Shown here piece by piece: positions 2,257-12,954 of a stretch of 12,954 bases of DNA (position 1 is the first letter of the stretch; each line of letters begins with the position of its first letter). The translations under genes and the position numbers were made by a program. The stretch is taken from assembly GCF_006345805.1 (NCBI RefSeq), contig NW_021826422.1:1-12954 (forward strand), read 5' to 3'. The notes under the pieces are model-generated. The model worked only from the letters and a program-made list of their open reading frames with translations, ran no database searches and was not told the origin of the DNA. The DNA comes from Octopus sinensis (taxonomy: Eukaryota).

Positions 2257-2638
2257 GGACACAAATGCATCCACATATAAAGATACACATCTTAGAAGAA
2301 AAGAATGGACTGGAGCAAGAAGACACACGGAAACGAAAAGTATCACTGAAGAAGTCACAGATGTGTGTCGAAAAATTTCCGGACGATGAACAGTCATTAA
2401 ATAATAAAATCACAGTAATGAAAGAGTGAAGAAAAATTATAGTACGTGTGTTTATTTGGGAAACAAAAAACAAACAAAAATAAAATGACCATCTCGAAAT
2501 AAAACAATATATATATATATATAATATTATATATTATATACCTGAATAAACATAAATGTGAAACAAGGTGGAAAAAAAAGAGTACTAAAATACCATGGTA
2601 GATAATATGCTTTATTTAAAATAGCAGAAAATTCAACA

Positions 2639-2738: not shown

Positions 2739-3045
2739 TCACGTGATCACGATCACGTGACCGACCAGTCTAACAGATGTAGTTACACATCGCTGGTCAC
2801 AATGCGTTCGCATTGTTTAAGCCTTCGAATGACGCCACCCCGCTGGCTAAGCGAGCAGGCCAACAGAAGAAAGAGTGGGATAAAGCGTGGTGAAAGAGTA
2901 CAGTAGGGATCACCACCCCCTGCCGGAGCCTCGTGGAGCTTTTAGGTGTTTTCGCTAAACACTCACAACGCCCGGTCTGGGAATCGAAACCGCGATCCTA
3001 CGACCGCGAGTCCACTGCCCTAACCACTGGGCCATTGCGCCTCCA
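2739..3045 (-). mobile_element. full-length tRNA-derived SINE (head A + tail Y)
   Basis: 2862-3045 is highly similar to 1886-2078 (same A/B boxes). The 3' part 2739-2861 is unrelated to tail X and ends in CACGTGAT-like repeats. Possible TSD tatatatatca (2731-2741) / tatgtatatca (3046-3056), but it lies in a TA tract. Confidence 0.9.
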
Positions 3046-3792: not shown

Positions 3793-3954
3793 AGGCGCAG
3801 GAGTGGCTGTGTGGTAAGGAGCTTGCTTACCAACCACATGGTTCCGGGTTCAGTCCCACTGCGTGGCACCTTGGGCAAGTGTCTTCTACTATAGCCTCGA
3901 GCCGGCCAAAGCCATGTGAGTGGAGTTGGTAGACGGAAACTGAAAGAAGCCTGT

Positions 3955-4403: not shown

Positions 4404-4648
4404 CACTCTGTCGGTTACGATGACGAGTGTTCCATGTGCAAGTGGCTGAGCACTCCACAGACACGTATGCCCATAACGTAGTTGTCAAGAAGCATCAGTG
4501 TAGTACAAAATGTGAATTACTGGTACAGCCTGTATTTGTCAGCTGAGTAAACTGGAAAAATGAGGAATAAAGTGTCTTGCTCACAGATACAACACTCCAC
4601 CGGGAATCGAACGCACGACATTACGAACCTGAGCGTTATACTCCGACC
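4404..4648 (-). mobile_element. old, internally deleted SINE (head B + tail X)
   Basis: ctctgtcggttacga, gtgcaagtggctgagcactccacagacac and aataaagtgtcttg all match 11136-11454. Confidence 0.8.
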
Positions 4649-4901: not shown

Positions 4902-5490
4902 ATACAGTCAATGGATGACTACTGATGTATGTATGCGTATGTATATGTGTATAAATTTTGTTACATTGGGAAGAGGCTACATAGAAGCATGAGGAAATAT
5001 AGCTCATGTGTGTATGTGGATATGTGTATATATGATGCGCGTGCAAGCGAGAATGTGTTGATGGTTTCCGTTAGATGTTTTTCTCTGTTAGGTATAATCG
5101 ACATTTATGAGACCCATTGATGACAGCAGTGGCGTATTAATGAGCGGCAGTTCATTGTACAATATTTTTTGCCTTGCACCTTCAGATTTATTTAAACAAA
5201 GGTGTGATTTGCTTTTTGTGTGTTTTAGATTTTACTGCTTTTAAGATTTTACTGCTTTTAAGGCCGAAACACATTTATTTTGTTTTTATATCATCAGTTG
5301 AAGAAACCTTGGCTCAATATATCAATGAGAAGGTGGCGTGTATGTGTGTGTATGTGTGTGTGTGTGTTTAAAAGTACAGTGTGTGTTTCAAGTCTCTGAC
5401 CATCGCATGAGAACATTGGTCGTTGAGCTGAGATCCAAAGTGAGGTTTCTGGCGTGAAAATGAAATACAATGCTGTTCTCGGCAAAACTG

Positions 5491-5493
<3 letters not shown>

Positions 5494-5537
<44 letters not shown>
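5494..5537. repeat. (CA)n microsatellite
   Basis: Perfect tandem AC directly abutting the palindrome. Confidence 0.95.
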
Positions 5538-5539
<2 letters not shown>

Positions 5540-5601
5540 AAAGAAAATGGAAAGTGAGAACACAAAAAAATCAATTTATTTATCTAATAGACAATTTCAT
5601 G

Positions 5602-5694
5602 TTGCCAACGCACGTTTCAATTTTTCACCTTCATTCATATTTTATAGCTAAAATTGCATCATGAATTTAAAAGGTAAAAATCTCTTCAGGGCAA
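5602..5694 (-). ncRNA. minimal type-I hammerhead ribozyme motif
   Basis: Minus strand reads TTGCC-CTGAAGA-GATTTTTACCTT...AAGGTGAAAAATT-GAAA-CGTGCG-TT-GGCAA. This gives a perfect 5-bp stem I, intact core, long stem II, near-palindromic minimal stem III and a GUU cleavage triplet. Confidence 0.75.
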
Positions 5695-5783
5695 AAATTG
5701 ACATATATTCATTTACATCCTAATGGATGCAAAGTTCATTGAACTTTCTATCCATTAGGATGTAAATGAATATATGCCAATTT

Positions 5784-5876
5784 CTGCTCTGAAGAGTTTT
5801 TTACCTTTTAATTTCATAATGCAATTTTGATTATAAAATATGAATGAAGGTGAAAAATTGAAACGTGCGTAGGCGA
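5784..5876 (+). ncRNA. minimal type-I hammerhead ribozyme motif (mirror copy)
   Basis: TGCT-CTGAAGA(5789-5795)-GTTTTTTACCTT...AAGGTGAAAAATT-GAAA(5860-5863)-CGTGCG-TA-GGCG. Stem I is 4 bp with two G-U pairs; cleavage triplet GUA; AATAAA at 5898-5903. Confidence 0.68.
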
Positions 5877-5954
5877 CATGAAATTGACTATTAGGTAAAT
5901 AAATTGAGTTTTCTGTGTTCTCACTCCCCATCTACTTTATATTATATTATATCA

Positions 5955-5965
5955 TATTATATATG

Positions 5966-6004
<39 letters not shown>
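5955..6004. repeat. (TA)n microsatellite
   Basis: Tandem TA between the two fold-back elements. Confidence 0.95.
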
Positions 6005-6015
6005 CTGAATGATTA

Positions 6016-6278
6016 AGATAAACACACGTTTATATTATTAGTTTCTATGTACGTTTCACCATTATAACTGATTGGAACCGTTCCAAGGGTAGAAGGATGC
6101 TTCATCAGGGAAGATTTTACTACAATGTATTACATATAGCTAGAGTGCAATAAATAGTTTCCTGATGATCCGAGCTGATGTAGCATCGGATGATACTTGG
6201 CACATTGGCATTGGGGACCCATGCAACCACAATGGTGAAGCGTACGTAGGGAGGAATAAAGCAAACTTGTGTTTGTCT
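6016..6278. mobile_element. second fold-back element with two divergent degenerate HHR motifs (Penelope-like relic)
   Basis: Gapless inverted repeats 6016-6063 / 6231-6278 (37/48 identical), each reading outward AATGGT-GAA(A/G)-CGTAC(A/G)-TA. CTGATGA cores on minus (6102-6108) and plus (6162-6168); AATAAA at 6255-6260. Confidence 0.7.
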
Positions 6279-7848
6279 CGGTCTCTCCGACACTTTCTCG
6301 GTATGTTTTAATTAGTAATACAGTACTTAGTATAGTTGTTACTTAACCTCTACATTAGAAGCTGTCTGGATGATGAGAATCTACGCTGTGTTCTAAACAT
6401 AACAATTTCAGTCGTACATGAATTTATACACACACACATGTACATATATAAATGTATGTCTGTCTGTGTATTAAACCCGCTACACACTGATATGTCTGTA
6501 TGTTCTTCTGTCCGTATATCTGCTGCACTGTCTTGAGGCTATCAGTTTCCCGTCTCTTTATCTCTCTCCCTTTTATATCTGTCTCCACATCTGCTTCTGT
6601 ATCTCCCAGACAATATGTAATATAGTTTCTTAATCGTCTGTGTTTTCATATGTTCATCTTAACATCTGTCTGTCTGTCTCTCTCTCTCTCTCTCATTATA
6701 CAACTATACCAACATACATACAAACGCGTACATACATGTATAATTAGTCATAAACACACGTACATATATACATATTTGCCCATTATTACATACACACACA
6801 CACATATATATATAAATACACGCGACACAAACACACACATATATATGTGTATTATTTATATATAATAGAATATGTATATATACTTGTCGGTATATCATAT
6901 ACACATACTATATGTGTATTTGATATTTGCATGCGCGTGAGCTCGCACACCCACACACACATGTGCGTGTATATACGTTTGTATTTCTGCTTATCGACGT
7001 CTATCTTCTCGTATAAGGCGTGTTTGAAAATTACAGCCAAACTTTGCAGGTAACAATTCAGTTGAACATTTAAGAGTTATTGATGAACATGTTAAGAATT
7101 TAAGAATCATTTGATTTCCTTTGTGTTCTGGATGTTGGAAGGCGAATAACTGTCGCAGATTCTAGTGTTTATTGACGTAATACCGATATAATTTCTGTCT
7201 GTCTCACCAGCTGAAGAGTTCTCGACTCAAAATATCAATGCTTTATTAAGGCACTTTACACTGGAGCCATAAGGAGTAGAATCATTACAAGAACACAGCG
7301 ATGATGGTTTAGAACTGATTGTGTTGATGGTTTTACGTCTTGTTTCATTTATTCTTGACCGGAGGCAGCAAAATTCTTAATGCAAAACTTTTAGACTCCG
7401 TTTTTTTAAAAATATTTTATTAGAAAATTCACTGGCATCTTCCATAGACTAGAATTCTCATCGACAAAGTAAACGCAATGGTTTACTCTACGCAAAACGG
7501 GATTTAAACGAAAAAAGAATTTTCTTTCTCTGCGTCTGCGCTATTGTGGCATTGCTTGTGTTGTCTTTAGTTTTAAATCTACTTTCTACTAAACCGTTAG
7601 TATAATAAACATGTGCACCTGAAAGATATGGGAAGAGATTATTGGAAGTCCATCAATACAGGTAGAGATTTTAGGAGTCCATCTGCTAATGTTATTCACT
7701 TCATTTTTTAAAAATACTGTCGAAAAGTGTTTATATAATGTATATATCGCAATTTTTATTTATCGTGAAATTATTTGTTGGATTATTTAGTAAATCATAT
7801 GACTAAAATATTTAGGAAATTTCGTATTGGTGTTCACTGCAATTATTG

Positions 7849-8119
7849 CAGTGGTTCCCAAACTTTTTCGGGTTGCCGCCCTCGTGACATCCCCATCCCA
7901 ACTAACCATCTCAAACACAGACCCGTTTCTGAAGCAAATTCGAAGCAACTACATTTCACAAATAAAAATTAACGTAATGAACCCATTATTTGATTGTTTT
8001 TACATGAATCGCTACCCCATTATCGCCCCACTTTTCATCAACGTCCCTCTTGGAACTTTCCACCATCCCTAGAATGTATGTGTGTGTGTGCGCAATACTG
8101 CCCACTTTGGGAACCACTG
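7849..8119. mobile_element. non-autonomous hAT (Charlie/Buster-like) MITE, 271 bp
   Basis: Perfect 14-bp TIR CAGTGGTTCCCAAA (7849-7862) / TTTGGGAACCACTG (8106-8119). 8-bp TSD aattattg (7841-7848) / aattattt (8120-8127), with central TA. Confidence 0.92.
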
Positions 8120-9204
8120 AATTATTTGTCTAAATTCTCTAAGGATATCTTTTAATAGTCCTCAGAGAGCGGGGCATTTTCAGAATCTCAGTTTGTTTTC
8201 AGGCACTTGTCACTACAAATGCCTTAATTTTAATGGAAAAATACCCGAAACTCACAGTTTTCTTCCATTGTAATATCCGTGGAGACATTGAGGAACTTAT
8301 CAGGACTATACCTTACTTCAGACAGGTTTCACGGAATAGCAATAAATTTTCGGGCATGTATTATATCTAATATCAGCGTAATTAATGATAGAGAAAGAAC
8401 TACCAAACATTAAACCCTTTGGATGCAAGGTTGGGTGGTAAAGAGATAAAACTGAAATATAAGAAACTGAATGGATTTGCAAATAACTTTATATTCTATG
8501 CTATTAAACCGCTTCCTTGCCAATCTGCGATTATCTCATAATGCTAAAATGGCGTTTGAATAATTTTTAAATTAATGGAACCTAAAATAGGTTTTCTAAA
8601 TTTACCTAATTGATTTTAGGAAGGATTAATGAGTCTAAACATGGAATTAGATTAATTTATCCATGTAGACTTTCGAATGTGATAAGATTTGGCGCTGGGC
8701 CAGATAGTCACCTACGTAAAAATACACACACGTGTATATATGTTACACACACACACACACACACACATATTATATATATGTATGCCTGCATGTGTGTGGA
8801 TATATAGAGATGTATTACTGAACAGGTGAATAAACACGCAAACACGAGGACAATAAACACACACACCAAACACACGATTAGATAGAAAGCTACACGCATT
8901 TACATAGGAATAGACATTTATAGATACAGATGAAAAATAAAATATTAAAAGATAAATTCACAAATTCAGACATGGATTAACTGATGAACTAATATTTGCC
9001 TGAGCTCATGCGTTAGCTGCAATGGAGATCTTGTACAACCAAGCTGCAAAAATAGTACTCACTATATTTTCGAGACATTATTTCTCGCTTATATAAAAAC
9101 TGACTGTTTCACAATTTATTCCGCTTCTGGCCGCTTGCTATTGACAATATATGCTGCCAACAACTCTATGTTACATCATGATTTAAACCTGTAATTATCA
9201 ATTA

Positions 9205-9256
9205 TTCAACAGCGGCTGACGACGTGAATATTCACCGAAACCTTAGGTAGCTTGAA
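9205..9256 (+). ncRNA. isolated degenerate minimal hammerhead-like motif
   Basis: CTGACGA (9216-9222), c, GTGAAT/ATTCAC, c, GAAA (9237-9240), CCTTAGG, TA, GCTTGAA. The last pairs imperfectly with upstream TTCAACAGC. Confidence 0.5.
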
Positions 9257-9411
9257 GTAAATATTAATAGTTTTCTGAATGTTATTTATTTGATTCACAC
9301 AGATGCTACGTTTTAGCACCAACTCTCAACTGAATAATTGCGTGGTCTTGTTTTTAAGTAGTTTGCTTAGATAAAATAAACTTGCATTGTTTTGGTTCAT
9401 AGTCGTATGTG

Positions 9412-9414
<3 letters not shown>

Positions 9415-9447
<33 letters not shown>
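9415..9447. repeat. (TA)n microsatellite
   Basis: Tandem TA. Confidence 0.95.
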
Positions 9448-9451
<4 letters not shown>

Positions 9452-10157
9452 TATATATGCGCATAATCTTATACCTATCAATACACACAGGCATATATAT
9501 ATATATATATATGTAGTGTGATTATTTATTTCTATATATGCATATATTAAGTTATTTATTCCTTCATGAGCATATTTTTATGTAGTCTATATGTGTATGT
9601 GCATACATTGTGTATATGAGTGTGTTGTGTGTATGTGTGTTGTTTTCAAGTGCTATGTATGTACGTGAGAGATAAATGTTTATTGTCTTTGATGCTGCAT
9701 AACTCTACTTTCATATTTTCAAACACACCTCTTAGATCGTAAACAAAGTGAAATCACGTGGTACGCTCAGCCTAAATCTGCCTGACCTGGAAATAAAAAT
9801 TCCTATAAAGAGAACAGAGAAGAAAACAAGCGAATAATACCATATGTTGCTTCATAGGGAATAATTCGTTTACGGTCAACTCATATTCTTCTATTGTGTT
9901 GTTAAAGAGAAAAACAACAGCAAACGATGAATATTCGCCCTATTTCTGTTTGTGATTTATACGCGTCGTTTTGTTTTCTCTTTTCCATTTTAACATTGTC
10001 TTTCTTAGTATTCTTTGGAGACTACCTAAACCTATTTCCTCTTCCGGAGCTGAAATTCTTTCAGGTTAGTAATTAAATAACTGTTCATATATAACGTTTC
10101 ACTGTAGAATGTTCAAATATAGCTTCAAGCTGCTGTGTATATGCAAGGATTAAAACG

Positions 10158-10428
10158 ATATCAAAACATTTGATACGTGCTTGTGGTATAAGGAGATTAA
10201 TACGGCGAGTGCATATTATAGGGAAAACGTGACGTATATCTTGGGGAATTAATTACACGGAGATATGCAGAAGTAGACGTGAGGTCGAGTCCCATCAGCC
10301 TTTCACTTATCTATTCAGATTTAACAATGAACCGTAAACGTTGCCTCAACGTCTGCAAGAACATATGTGAGGGCAAATATTATATCAAGAGATTTGCTAC
10401 GTGCTGGACTTGAAGGAGATTAATACGG
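10158..10428. repeat. diverged direct repeat pair (~48 bp, ~224 bp apart)
   Basis: 10158-10205 vs 10382-10428: first 24 nt are 21/24 identical; the last 16 nt (AAGGAGATTAATACGG) are identical. Confidence 0.7.
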
Positions 10429-10829
10429 TGGCTGAAGTCTCTACGTAAAAAAAGCTTAAATAAAGCGAAATGTTTAAAAGCTGGGAGTACGCAGGTGAAC
10501 GCAGGTTCCATTTCAGACCTCGTCGTATTATTATAGTTGGTTCTGTCATGTGACCGGCTATATATACAGACAACGGTGGTCTGTTTGTATGTTAACAAGT
10601 GTAATAATAAATATCTGCTCAGTTTATTTATTTGAAAATATAGAATTCAAGTAGGAGGTGGGAAAGGAAAAGGCAGAGGTATTTCAGGTGAAAGTAATTT
10701 AATCAATATGAGTGTATCTTAAGAAAAACGAAAGGAAATAATCGTTCATCGAAGTTAAAAATGTGACTAATTTTTGTTTTCGAAAATTAAGGCAACGTGT
10801 GTGCTTATTGGCGTAAAAGTATTTTATTG

Positions 10830-11050
10830 TTTACATTTTTTCAGTTATTGGATGGCAGCCATGATGGAGCACTGCGTTGAAGGGTTTTAATCAAACAAAT
10901 CGATCAGATTACTTGTTTGCTCTAAAGTTTGGTACTTATTCTGTTTGTCACTTTTGCCGAACCGCTGATGTTATGGGAGACGTAAACAAACCAATACTGG
11001 TTGTCAAGCGGCGTGTGTGTGAGGCAAAGACAGCCACAAAGACACACGCA
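10830..11050 (-). mobile_element. 3' half of SINE family C
   Basis: Reverse complement of 4000-4200, e.g. gccatgatggagcac, gtacttattct, cttttgccgaaccgct, gacgtaaaca, ggttgtcaagc. Confidence 0.85.
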
Positions 11051-11054
11051 CATT

Positions 11055-11079
11055 TATATACATATATATCTATATACAT

Positions 11080-11128
<49 letters not shown>

Positions 11129-11133
11129 TATAT
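11055..11133. repeat. (TA)n/(CA)n microsatellite
   Basis: Tandem repeats at the position of the internal microsatellite of SINE C. Confidence 0.9.
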
Positions 11134-11135
11134 AA

Positions 11136-11452
11136 GGAGCTCTCTGTCGGTTACGACGACTAGGGTCCCAGCTGATACGCTTGCTGATACAGCTTGCTCG
11201 TGAAATTAACGTGCAAGTGGCTGAGCACTCCACAGACATGTGTACCCCTAACGTAGTTCTCAAGGAGATTCAGCGTGACACAGAGTGTGACAAGGCTGGC
11301 CACTTTGAAATTCAGGTACTACTTATTTTTGCCAGCTTAGTGGACTGGAGCAACGTGAAATAAAGTGTCTTGAGCACAACACGTCGCCGAGAATTGAGCT
11401 CACGACATTGCGATCATGAGTCGAATGCCCTAACCACTAAGCCACGCGCCTT

Positions 11453-11454
<2 letters not shown>
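11136..11454 (-). mobile_element. full-length tRNA-derived SINE (head B + tail X)
   Basis: Minus strand begins TGAAGGCGCGTGGCTTAGTGGTTAGGGCA (A-box TGGCTTAGTGG). 11138-11319 matches tail X of 1695-1878. Flanked by tacacacacaca on both sides. Confidence 0.9.
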
Positions 11455-11484
<30 letters not shown>

Positions 11485-11654
11485 ACATGAATATAAGTCG
11501 AAAGAAATTGTTGGTATTTTTTTCTTTTATAATATAATATATTATATTATAGTATAAATAAATTGTTAGGTTGTCAATTCTATTTCTGTATTTAATTAAT
11601 TGTTTATATATATATATATATATTTACAATCCTATCTGATTTATATATTTGCCT

Positions 11655-11823
11655 ACTAGAGGCTTCCACACAATTTCTGTCCAGCATATTCACTCACAGG
11701 ACACGGGTCGAACCCGGGATGTCATTGAAGATACATGTGCAATATCTCTCACAATGAAGCAGAATCTAGAGCTGCGTGCTTACAAAACAGGAGCATCGTA
11801 ACTGCACAACAATACTTGCGCCT
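11655..11823 (-). mobile_element. highly diverged 5' half of SINE family C
   Basis: ggcttc...tttctgtc...cactcaca...gaagatac...cttgcgcct is colinear with the reverse complement of 3793-3955. Confidence 0.6.
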
Positions 11824-12145
11824 TTGGAGTGAATTAAAGCAAATCGACTGCCAAACAATAGCTGGGGCATGCTTAACAATTCAAGAACTCTGGAAGCCAT
11901 ATATGCCAGAAAAAATATGTCATTTATTTAAAGAAATAGACGTCCACACACACCTATCAATGAAGGTATCTTCCCGCTCATCTCTCTGTCTGTCTTTCTT
12001 TCTCTCTTCTCTCTTTATACTTTTTTGAAGTTTTCTCTGGTCAGCCAAAGCATGAACGGCCAAGGGCGAAACTTGAAGTAGACTATCAATATTAATGTTG
12101 CAATATATACATATATACACACACACATATAGATATATACAAAAA

Positions 12146-12184
<39 letters not shown>

Positions 12185-12354
12185 ATATGGTAAGCAGAGT
12201 TGGCGGTTGGGATAACCATCTAAGGGATAATAATATCTGTTCTTACTACCGGTATCATTTACATATGTCAACTCTGGGCATGAGCTTGCATTCACACTAT
12301 GCTCATATTTTACATGTAATAACTGAATAAACAGAATTTTATCAGGAATCAAAG

Positions 12355-12798
12355 TTTAAATAAAAATGGAGAAAACTTTTGATCAACAAACAAACAAATT
12401 GAACAACATGGTTTAATTATTTTAAAATACAAAACATAATATATGTTTTTACGGCCGTTTCGACCTCCTATGTCAGTCGGTGCTGATAAAGAAAATTCCT
12501 AAAATAATATTCGTCATCTTTGTAGCACATTCGATCTAGTACATTGAGCTTCATCATTCACCAGAGAGAATACAAATACATAAAATAAAAGAAGGAAGAG
12601 GAAAGAACAGGGCCTCGAGATGTGGCCAGATTGATCAATACATTAGAATGATATCATTTTGAAGTGTGAAGCATGAAGTCGATAGGCAGCCGAAACGGGC
12701 GTAAGAAATGTTATGTTATGTTTTGTAATAAGAAAATAGTTAACCGATGTTGGTTAATCTGTTGATCAAAAGGTTTCTCCATTTTCTGCTTATTTGAA
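12355..12798. mobile_element. third fold-back element with ~115-bp inverted arms carrying HHR 3' halves
   Basis: 12363-12388 vs reverse complement of 12760-12785 are 25/26 identical. Arms contain tacggccgtttcg (12450-12462) and cgaaacgggcgta (12691-12703), i.e. outward GAAA-CGG(C/G)CG-TA. Spacer is about 210 bp. Confidence 0.75.
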
Positions 12799-12801
12799 TG
12801 T

Positions 12802-12833
<32 letters not shown>

Positions 12834-12836
12834 TAC

Positions 12837-12954
12837 GTGGTTTTGTGGTCAGAGGCATGCTTCCAAAACACATGGTTCCGGTTTCAGTCCCACTGCGTGG
12901 CACCTTGCGCAAGTGTCTTCTGCTATAGCCTCGGACTGACCACAGCTCTGTGTG
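12837..12954 (+). mobile_element. 5' part of SINE family C, cut by the window edge
   Basis: cacatggttccggtttcagtcccactgcgtggcaccttgcgcaagtgtcttctgctatagcctcg is near-identical to 3835-3899. Confidence 0.9.

Follow-up and report, generated by a model that had tools for sequence, protein, structure and literature searches.

A 12,954-nucleotide stretch of the Octopus sinensis genome (contig NW_021826422.1 of assembly GCF_006345805.1; hereafter the window, meaning the whole stretch analysed) carries three fold-back elements, E1 (5539..5939), E2 (6016..6278) and E3 (12355..12798), whose arms contain hammerhead ribozyme motifs or parts of them that point outward. Each element is probably (we put the probability at about 0.7) a head-to-head pair of the 3' termini (pseudo-long terminal repeats, pLTRs) of a Penelope-like element (PLE) without an open reading frame (ORF), and the three would represent three different families situated at microsatellites. 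The window itself is AT-rich, microsatellite-dense animal DNA in which no coding sequence could be recognised.

Three fold-back elements and their independence

When microsatellites were masked and all inverted repeats of the window were ranked, E1, E2 and E3 came out as the top three (scores of 283, 83 and 41, followed by 32 and 27), in agreement with the inverted arms that a first inspection of the sequence (the original prediction) had proposed. E1 consists of two arms of 200 nt (5539-5738 and 5740-5939) that are 90% complementary and separated by a centre of 1 nt at 5739; they differ at 21 of the 200 positions, and 14 of these differences are transitions. E2 and E3 are more diverged: the outer arms of E2 (6016-6063 and 6231-6278, centre near 6135) are 77% complementary, and E3 combines homologous outer arms (74% identity across 112 columns) with weakly similar inner parts. 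The arm alignments within the elements beat 300 of 300 shuffles, and the fold-backs at these coordinates are real. The similarity that continues up to the centre was matched by 13 of 1000 shuffles for E2 and, for the inner parts of E3, by 47 of 1000; an inverted head-to-head copy with a palindromic junction is thus clear in E1 and weak towards the centre in the other two.

The elements have little primary sequence in common, as had been claimed: 11 of the 12 comparisons between arms of different elements were not significant with respect to shuffles, and the sole borderline pair, the left arms of E1 and E2, was matched by 4 of 300. A 3'-terminal CCATTTT common to E1 and E3 was considered and dismissed as not significant (127, 372 and 194 of 1000 shuffles). 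No further copies of E1, E2 or E3 were found within the window, and the three loci show no tandem period; their hammerhead motifs sit on opposite strands.

The outward-facing motif

The pattern GAA[AG]CGNNC[GA]T[ACT] has six matches in the whole window, one per arm and all directed outward (starts at 5618- and 5860+ in E1, 6057- and 6237+ in E2, 12461- and 12692+ in E3), against a mean of 0.16 and a maximum of 2 in 500 shuffles, figures that have to be read with the knowledge that the pattern was derived post hoc from the same data and that the arms copy each other and are not independent. A less tailored pattern gave seven matches, five in the elements and two in copies of another repeat, with a shuffle mean of 1.67; as this corresponds to only about four independent events, it is the location of the motif that carries weight and not the count. 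No enrichment is seen for its loosest form, GAAA-N6-UH (37 in the window, shuffle mean 29.7). The predicted outward GAAA, 6-nt insert and UH are recovered in all six arms, except that the right arm of E2 has GAAG instead of GAAA.

The CUGANGA cores that had been noticed on the inner side of the first two elements are indeed present, at 5689- and 5789+ in E1 and at 6108- and 6162+ in E2, with a core-to-core distance of about 100 and 54 nt, respectively; the paired GAAA motifs are separated by 180-242 nt. The complete order CUGANGA...GAAA...UH is found in both arms of E1 and in the left arm of E2, is interrupted by the GAAG in the right arm of E2 and is missing from both arms of E3, and helices I, II and III surround the core in E1 only. 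The predicted self-pairing of helix III is substantial for E1 (-8.8 kcal/mol), the right arm of E2 (-10.4) and the left arm of E3 (-14.1), and weak for the left arm of E2 (-4.6) and the right arm of E3 (-3.3). A scan of the window with Rfam gave 70 matches at E up to 10 and no hammerhead family among them; its miRNA-like matches were all under the gathering score and reflect hairpins or microsatellites. The exact-pattern scan of bacterial and archaeal genomes returned 0 matches, and blastn against phage none.

E1 contains two type I hammerheads

Read outward, each arm of E1 presents a proximal helix I of 4-5 bp, a 4-nt bulge, a distal helix, the core CUGAAGA, a helix II of 64 nt, GAAA, and a helix III of two pairs with a near-palindromic loop. 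The left putative ribozyme (5589..5703, minus strand) comprises CUGAAGA at 5689-5683, helix II at 5682-5619, GAAA at 5618-5615, CGUGCG, and UU at 5608-5607, with a predicted cut after 5607, and its helix I is composed of the 4-5 bp, the bulge and the distal helix. The right one (5775..5889, plus strand) comprises CUGAAGA at 5789-5795, helix II at 5796-5859, GAAA at 5860-5863, CGUGCG, and UA at 5870-5871, with a predicted cut after 5871.

The original prediction had asked for a hammerhead descriptor and shuffled controls. At the scale of the window, a strict type I descriptor recovered a single core, that of the left arm of E1 (1 of 500 shuffles reached one), and a loose version recovered two, those of the left and right arms of E1 (0 of 500 shuffles reached two); E2 and E3 gave no match. 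The centroid fold of the left arm is the hammerhead fold, and the constrained hammerhead fold lies 1.7 (left) and 3.8 kcal/mol (right) above the minimum free energy. None of the 14 CUGAAGA positions is altered between the arms. The 21 differences are scattered without compensation and spare the core, a pattern that neutral decay would produce. Assuming that E1 inserted with identical arms and evolved at the octopus rate used in PMC13282606, its age would be about 16 million years. Taken together, the sequence evidence supports the identity of the E1 motifs as hammerheads.

E2 has a crossed helix I

The two hammerhead-like motifs of E2 are the left one at 6039..6115 on the minus strand (CUGAUGA at 6108-6102, GAAA at 6057, CGUACA, UA) and the right one at 6155..6255 on the plus strand (CUGAUGA at 6162-6168, a second, pseudo-core at 6175, GAAG at 6237, CGUACG, UA); the predicted cuts would fall after 6046 and 6248, respectively. 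Their helix I strands pair between the arms: the left 5' strand (6115-6109) forms six consecutive pairs with the 3' strand of the right arm, and the right 5' strand (6155-6161) pairs 7/7 with the left 3' strand (6045-6039). This amounts to 13 of 14 crosswise pairs versus 8 of 14 in cis, where the consecutive helix is reduced to 1 bp on the left and to 4 bp, including two G.U, on the right. This crossed helix I is the new detail of the elements described here.

The mutual differences of the two crossed helices are double-sided changes. In simulations of the decay of one palindrome over 12 settings, the excess of crosswise over cis pairing was reached with P of 1.5e-5 to 1.4e-3 when G.U was allowed and of 4e-4 to 8e-3 for Watson-Crick pairs only, with a statistic that was picked after the pattern had been seen. 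Because the excess is improbable from random decay, it points to two distinct, separately evolved helix I duplexes in E2. In summed energies of helices I and III (duplexes only, loop costs ignored) the combination of left and right reaches -26.2 kcal/mol, left with left -4.6 and right with right -16.0. The same sums for E1 are -24.3 for the heterodimer versus -27.4 and -21.8 kcal/mol for the homodimers, so no heterodimer preference, and the four mismatched E1/E2 pairs range from -10.5 to -14.9 kcal/mol.

Two histories could explain the crossed pattern: an inversion of the spacer, for which the central segment between the cores (6109..6161) is the candidate, or an obligate heterodimeric double hammerhead. 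Reversing the segment between the arms in silico restores cis helices of 7 and 6 bp. The inversion is the more likely of the two, because it needs no selection, the motifs lie on opposite strands, and one active site, the right one, is defective (GAAG together with a helix III mismatch). The hammerhead identity of E2 is, overall, partly supported by its sequence.

The right arm of E2 also contains a 13-nt insertion (window positions 6169-6191), which looks like a local inverted duplication; it can pair with the sequence after it into a hairpin and gives rise to the pseudo-core at 6175. Both arms are open from the AUG inside CUGAUGA, for 48 codons on the plus strand (6165-6308) and for 31 codons on the minus strand (6105-6013), and an ORF start within the hammerhead has been reported for some PLEs (PMC11167929). 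The frames carry no coding signature, and the 48-residue one had no homologue in a protein search. A GIY-YIG-like reading of these frames (ETYI/EAYVG) was discarded, since inspection showed a synonymous change in just 1 of the 10 codons that differ between the arms, and the letters stem from the ribozyme motif.

E3 retains half-motifs

E3 carries GAAA-CGGCCG-UA at 12450..12461 on the minus strand and GAAA-CGGGCG-UA at 12692..12703 on the plus strand; core and helix I are not recoverable in either arm, and the hammerhead identity of E3 is supported as a half-motif only. E3 may be a decayed element of the E1 and E2 kind, or else a foldback unrelated to them. A type II topology, suggested on inspection by a hairpin after the UH in the left arm, was discarded as no core follows the hairpin. 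An inner frame of 40 residues, considered as a PLE C-terminus, was likewise discarded: it had 2 matches among 1.84 billion proteins, both as multiple stretches inside long proteins and not as a terminal domain.

Contact with microsatellites

E1 begins 2 nt from an (AC)22 tract (5494..5537), and its right end adjoins a TA tract that is degenerate from its start at 5938 and then pure up to 6004. The left end of E2 lies 12 nt from the same tract, and the right end of E3 lies 4 nt from another (TA)n tract (12802..12835). The distances from the six ends to the nearest pure dinucleotide tract are 2, 27, 12, 150, 178 and 4 nt; by comparison, 6.4% of the non-microsatellite positions of the window are found within 15 nt of such a tract. 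The adjacency that had been claimed thus holds for one end per element (2, 12 and 4 nt), but the opposite end of E2 is 150 nt and that of E3 178 nt from any tract, and E1 and E2 share theirs. None of the three elements revealed a target-site duplication (TSD), in particular none of 8-9 bp, and E1 can be read as flanked by TA. For PLEs, a preference for (TA)n, inverted 5'-truncated copies and undiscernible TSDs in microsatellites have been reported (PMC8557442).

A probable origin from Penelope-like elements

The pLTR hammerheads, their action as dimers, the inverted head-to-head copies and the (TA)n bias on which the following scenario draws are taken from the PLE literature and would apply here by analogy. 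The PLE-encoded GIY-YIG endonuclease (EN) would cut an AT-rich or microsatellite target, and the reverse transcriptase (RT) would begin copying the element RNA 30-95 nt downstream of the hammerhead site; after an early stop of synthesis, self-priming or a template jump would add an inverted copy, yielding a palindrome with both ribozymes facing outward. At AT-rich sites, purified PLE protein does cut and extend both DNA strands; its RT begins downstream of the hammerhead, and cleavage is dispensable in vitro (PMC11167929); inverted pLTRs are about 180-220 bp and head-to-head, and their palindromic junctions have been ascribed to self-priming (PMC3846280). With its equal arms and 1-nt centre, E1 may be the clean product of a single event, E2 may have joined two already diverged ribozymes, its centre most likely being flipped later, and E3 would be older or more decayed. 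The architecture agrees with the PLE hammerhead consensus CUGANGAH-helix II-GAAAN-palindrome-NUH, whose published examples include a helix II closed by G.U in Lottia and cores lacking the extra nucleotide in Saccoglossus and Marsupenaeus (PMC4209133 supplement).

In the parent elements the ribozyme would act as a dimer via the palindromic helix III. At the present loci the hammerheads are probably inactive: read-through transcription would produce the antisense arm first, and the predicted arm-arm hairpin of E1 (-246 kcal/mol) is far more stable than the ribozyme fold (about -19). To release the ribozymes, transcription would have to begin close to the centre. The three elements together span 1,108 bp or 8.6% of the window, a share close to the 6.83% (190 families) that PLEs occupy in O. 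vulgaris (PMC13282606 supplement); their density can therefore be accounted for without invoking a hidden class.

A number of results weigh against a PLE derivation of the three elements. In 26 frames (the 25 least repetitive of the 68 listed for the window and the E3 frame) no Pfam match of any kind, RT and GIY-YIG included, was above the cut-off, and three protein searches with frames of the elements or their neighbourhood returned nothing PLE-like, which is weak evidence. None of five element motifs occurs in the PMC8557442 supplement, in which long cells are cut, and the only Octopus PLEs with a (TA)n preference in the rows listed there are Naiads, which are without canonical hammerheads. 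A 30-40 nt PLE tail could not be distinguished from decayed microsatellite at the element ends. The fold energy of the left arm of E1 is unremarkable (z -1.1), and the helix II of E1 is far longer than that of any published PLE example compared (PMC4209133 supplement). Neither arm of E2 closes a canonical helix II, and in E3, where 23 near-cores with at most 2 mismatches lie in the 110 nt upstream of GAAA, none had more than 2 bp of helix I. What had been proposed as a Penelope-derived, microsatellite-targeting origin fits the published anatomy of PLEs; nonetheless we infer this parentage from that likeness, and no link to RT or EN emerged.

Alternative explanations

The elements could instead be self-propagating non-autonomous double-pLTR units, moved whole by PLE proteins in trans and with both ribozymes under selection, E2 being a co-evolved obligate heterodimer assembled from two divergent transcripts. 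The geometry of a double hammerhead requires helix III to form between the units and each 5' helix I strand to pair with the partner's 3' strand (dimer model in PMC4209133), which E2 fits; its left-right combination is favoured over both homodimers and the mismatched pairs, and its crossed pattern is unlikely to arise by random decay of a single palindrome. Moreover, pLTRs have been described as acting in cis for mobilisation in trans, with a suggested bidirectional promoter (PMC3846280). However, a spacer inversion yields the same pattern without function, and E1 is indifferent to heterodimer formation. The second site of E2 is defective and its helix II non-canonical, merely 53 nt between the cores would have to hold two promoters, and the simulation statistic was chosen post hoc. 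We consider these units unlikely. The fuller version, in which Octopus harbours self-propagating ORF-less palindromic PLE derivatives with co-evolved hammerheads and the arms of the E2 family cleave only as a left-right heterodimer from divergent transcripts, appears very unlikely.

Some or all of the elements might also be non-autonomous DNA transposons (foldback elements or miniature inverted-repeat transposable elements, MITEs; for example Mutator- or Tc1-like with a TA target), with ribozyme-like motifs that are captured or due to chance, and E3, being without the catalytic 5' half, is the most plausible case. Long terminal inverted arms and the TA-flanked reading of E1 are compatible with this, and elements with terminal inverted repeats (TIRs) are active in O. 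vulgaris (PMC13282606). A full E1 hammerhead is, on the other hand, expected by chance about once in 500 such windows, the half-motif occurs in the top three inverted repeats, and the ends show neither an 8-9 bp TSD nor significant similarity among elements (ends of E1 versus E3, and whole arms). What a DNA transposon looks like is illustrated within the same window by a MITE at 7849-8119, which has short TIRs beginning CAGTGGTTCCCAAA and near-identical 8-bp flanks (7/8 matching) and no hammerhead motif; we take it to be hAT-like. A DNA-transposon nature of the elements is quite unlikely. Finally, the near-zero spacer of E1 and the AT-rich, microsatellite-dense surroundings might evoke fold-back artefacts of assembly or sequencing, or chance hairpins; this is hardly credible in view of the 21 differences with their transition bias in E1, the divergence of about 25% or more with indels in E2 and E3, and the arm alignments that no shuffle equalled. 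The pairing of PLE termini remains the reading that we prefer.

Other features of the window

A solo, decayed hammerhead-like motif on the plus strand at 9216-9250 (CUGACGA, palindromic helix II, GAAA and near-palindromic helix III) is followed after about 165 nt by the (TA)n at 9414 and is possibly a single PLE end; it fails the type I descriptor, and the frame upstream of it had no homologue in a protein search. At 2346-2385 (plus strand), 90 nt after a (CA)n tract, CUGAAGA, an extra A, a hairpin with 5 of 6 bp and GAAA resemble a minimal hammerhead with no helix I in register.

The window further contains several families of short, dispersed repeats that have tRNA-like portions and often neighbour microsatellites (1773-1864, 4442-4533 and 11217-11308; 1989-2078 and 2956-3045; 3803-3918 and 12837-12952), which are presumably octopus short interspersed elements (SINEs). 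A frame across such a repeat matches an Octopus bimaculoides protein with 69% identity (E 1.1e-16; sole match, two candidates). The Rfam scan gave a weak tRNA match at 11385-11446, and a 17-nt tandem duplication of 2.4 copies with 95% identity is found at 5223-5262.

Significance and comparison with known systems

The structurally defined class of double-hammerhead elements that had been proposed is overstated as a new one: opposite-strand pairs, palindromic head-to-head junctions and a (TA)n bias have already been published for PLEs (PMC4209133, PMC3846280, PMC8557442). These elements constitute a modest extension to PLE-type hammerhead pairs in a cephalopod, in a form with a long helix II. 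The structural signature could help to sort repeats labelled 'Unknown' or MITE; 15% of O. vulgaris is annotated as Unknown (PMC13282606 supplement). Minimal palindromes such as E1 offer exact junctions and ends with which self-priming and template-jump models of how PLEs generate inverted copies (PMC8557442, PMC3846280) could be compared across many copies. Should the crossed helix I of E2 prove a family trait with cleavage by the heterodimer only, it would represent a ribozyme logic not met in the literature searched; PLE hammerheads would then be selected and not passengers, and cleavage would be tied to bidirectional transcription. If transcribed, the long hairpins might also be double-stranded RNA substrates for editing or silencing. 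Among the full-text matches listed, with most subscription literature outside the scope, none described palindromic double-hammerhead families without an ORF, hammerheads in octopus or naturally occurring heterodimers with crossed helices.

The closest published counterparts are dual minimal hammerheads on opposite strands about 100-700 bp apart, which are related to truncated PLEs (Cervera & de la Pena 2014, PMC4209133). Like the octopus elements they are of type I, have a short palindromic helix III, lie within a few hundred bp, contain no ORF and vary highly between families. They differ in their short helix II hairpins, as opposed to the 64 nt of E1 and the 6-nt CG..CG insert in helix III seen here; E1 moreover is without the extra nucleotide after A9, and the crossed helix I of E2 was not found in the available text of that paper, which gives the dual motifs without detail on orientation or palindromes. 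The head-to-head inverted pLTRs of EN-containing (EN+) PLEs (Arkhipova et al. 2013, PMC3846280; Craig et al. 2021, PMC8557442) share with our elements repeats of about 200 nt and a palindromic junction, and their microsatellite or AT-rich sites and often undiscernible TSDs would also fit; there, however, the pLTR adjoins an ORF-bearing element, whereas here just two termini are present and no tail or TSD was identified.

Other systems resemble the elements in part. MITEs and foldback DNA transposons are also short and non-coding with long terminal inverted repeats, but no long TSD was found at E1, E2 and E3, their arms reach the centre and ribozyme motifs lie within the arms. Non-LTR retrozymes (PMC7229834; bioRxiv 10.64898/2026.07.22.740005) are similarly small and non-coding, with a type I hammerhead and a proposed derivation from PLEs; they are head-to-tail tandem repeats that give circular RNA, unlike the inverted arrangement found here, in which a single transcript never has both ribozymes in sense. 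Autonomous PLEs carry an RT-EN ORF, and the window contains none. The octopus elements would work like a PLE terminal pair and are neither tandem retrozymes nor autonomous PLEs.

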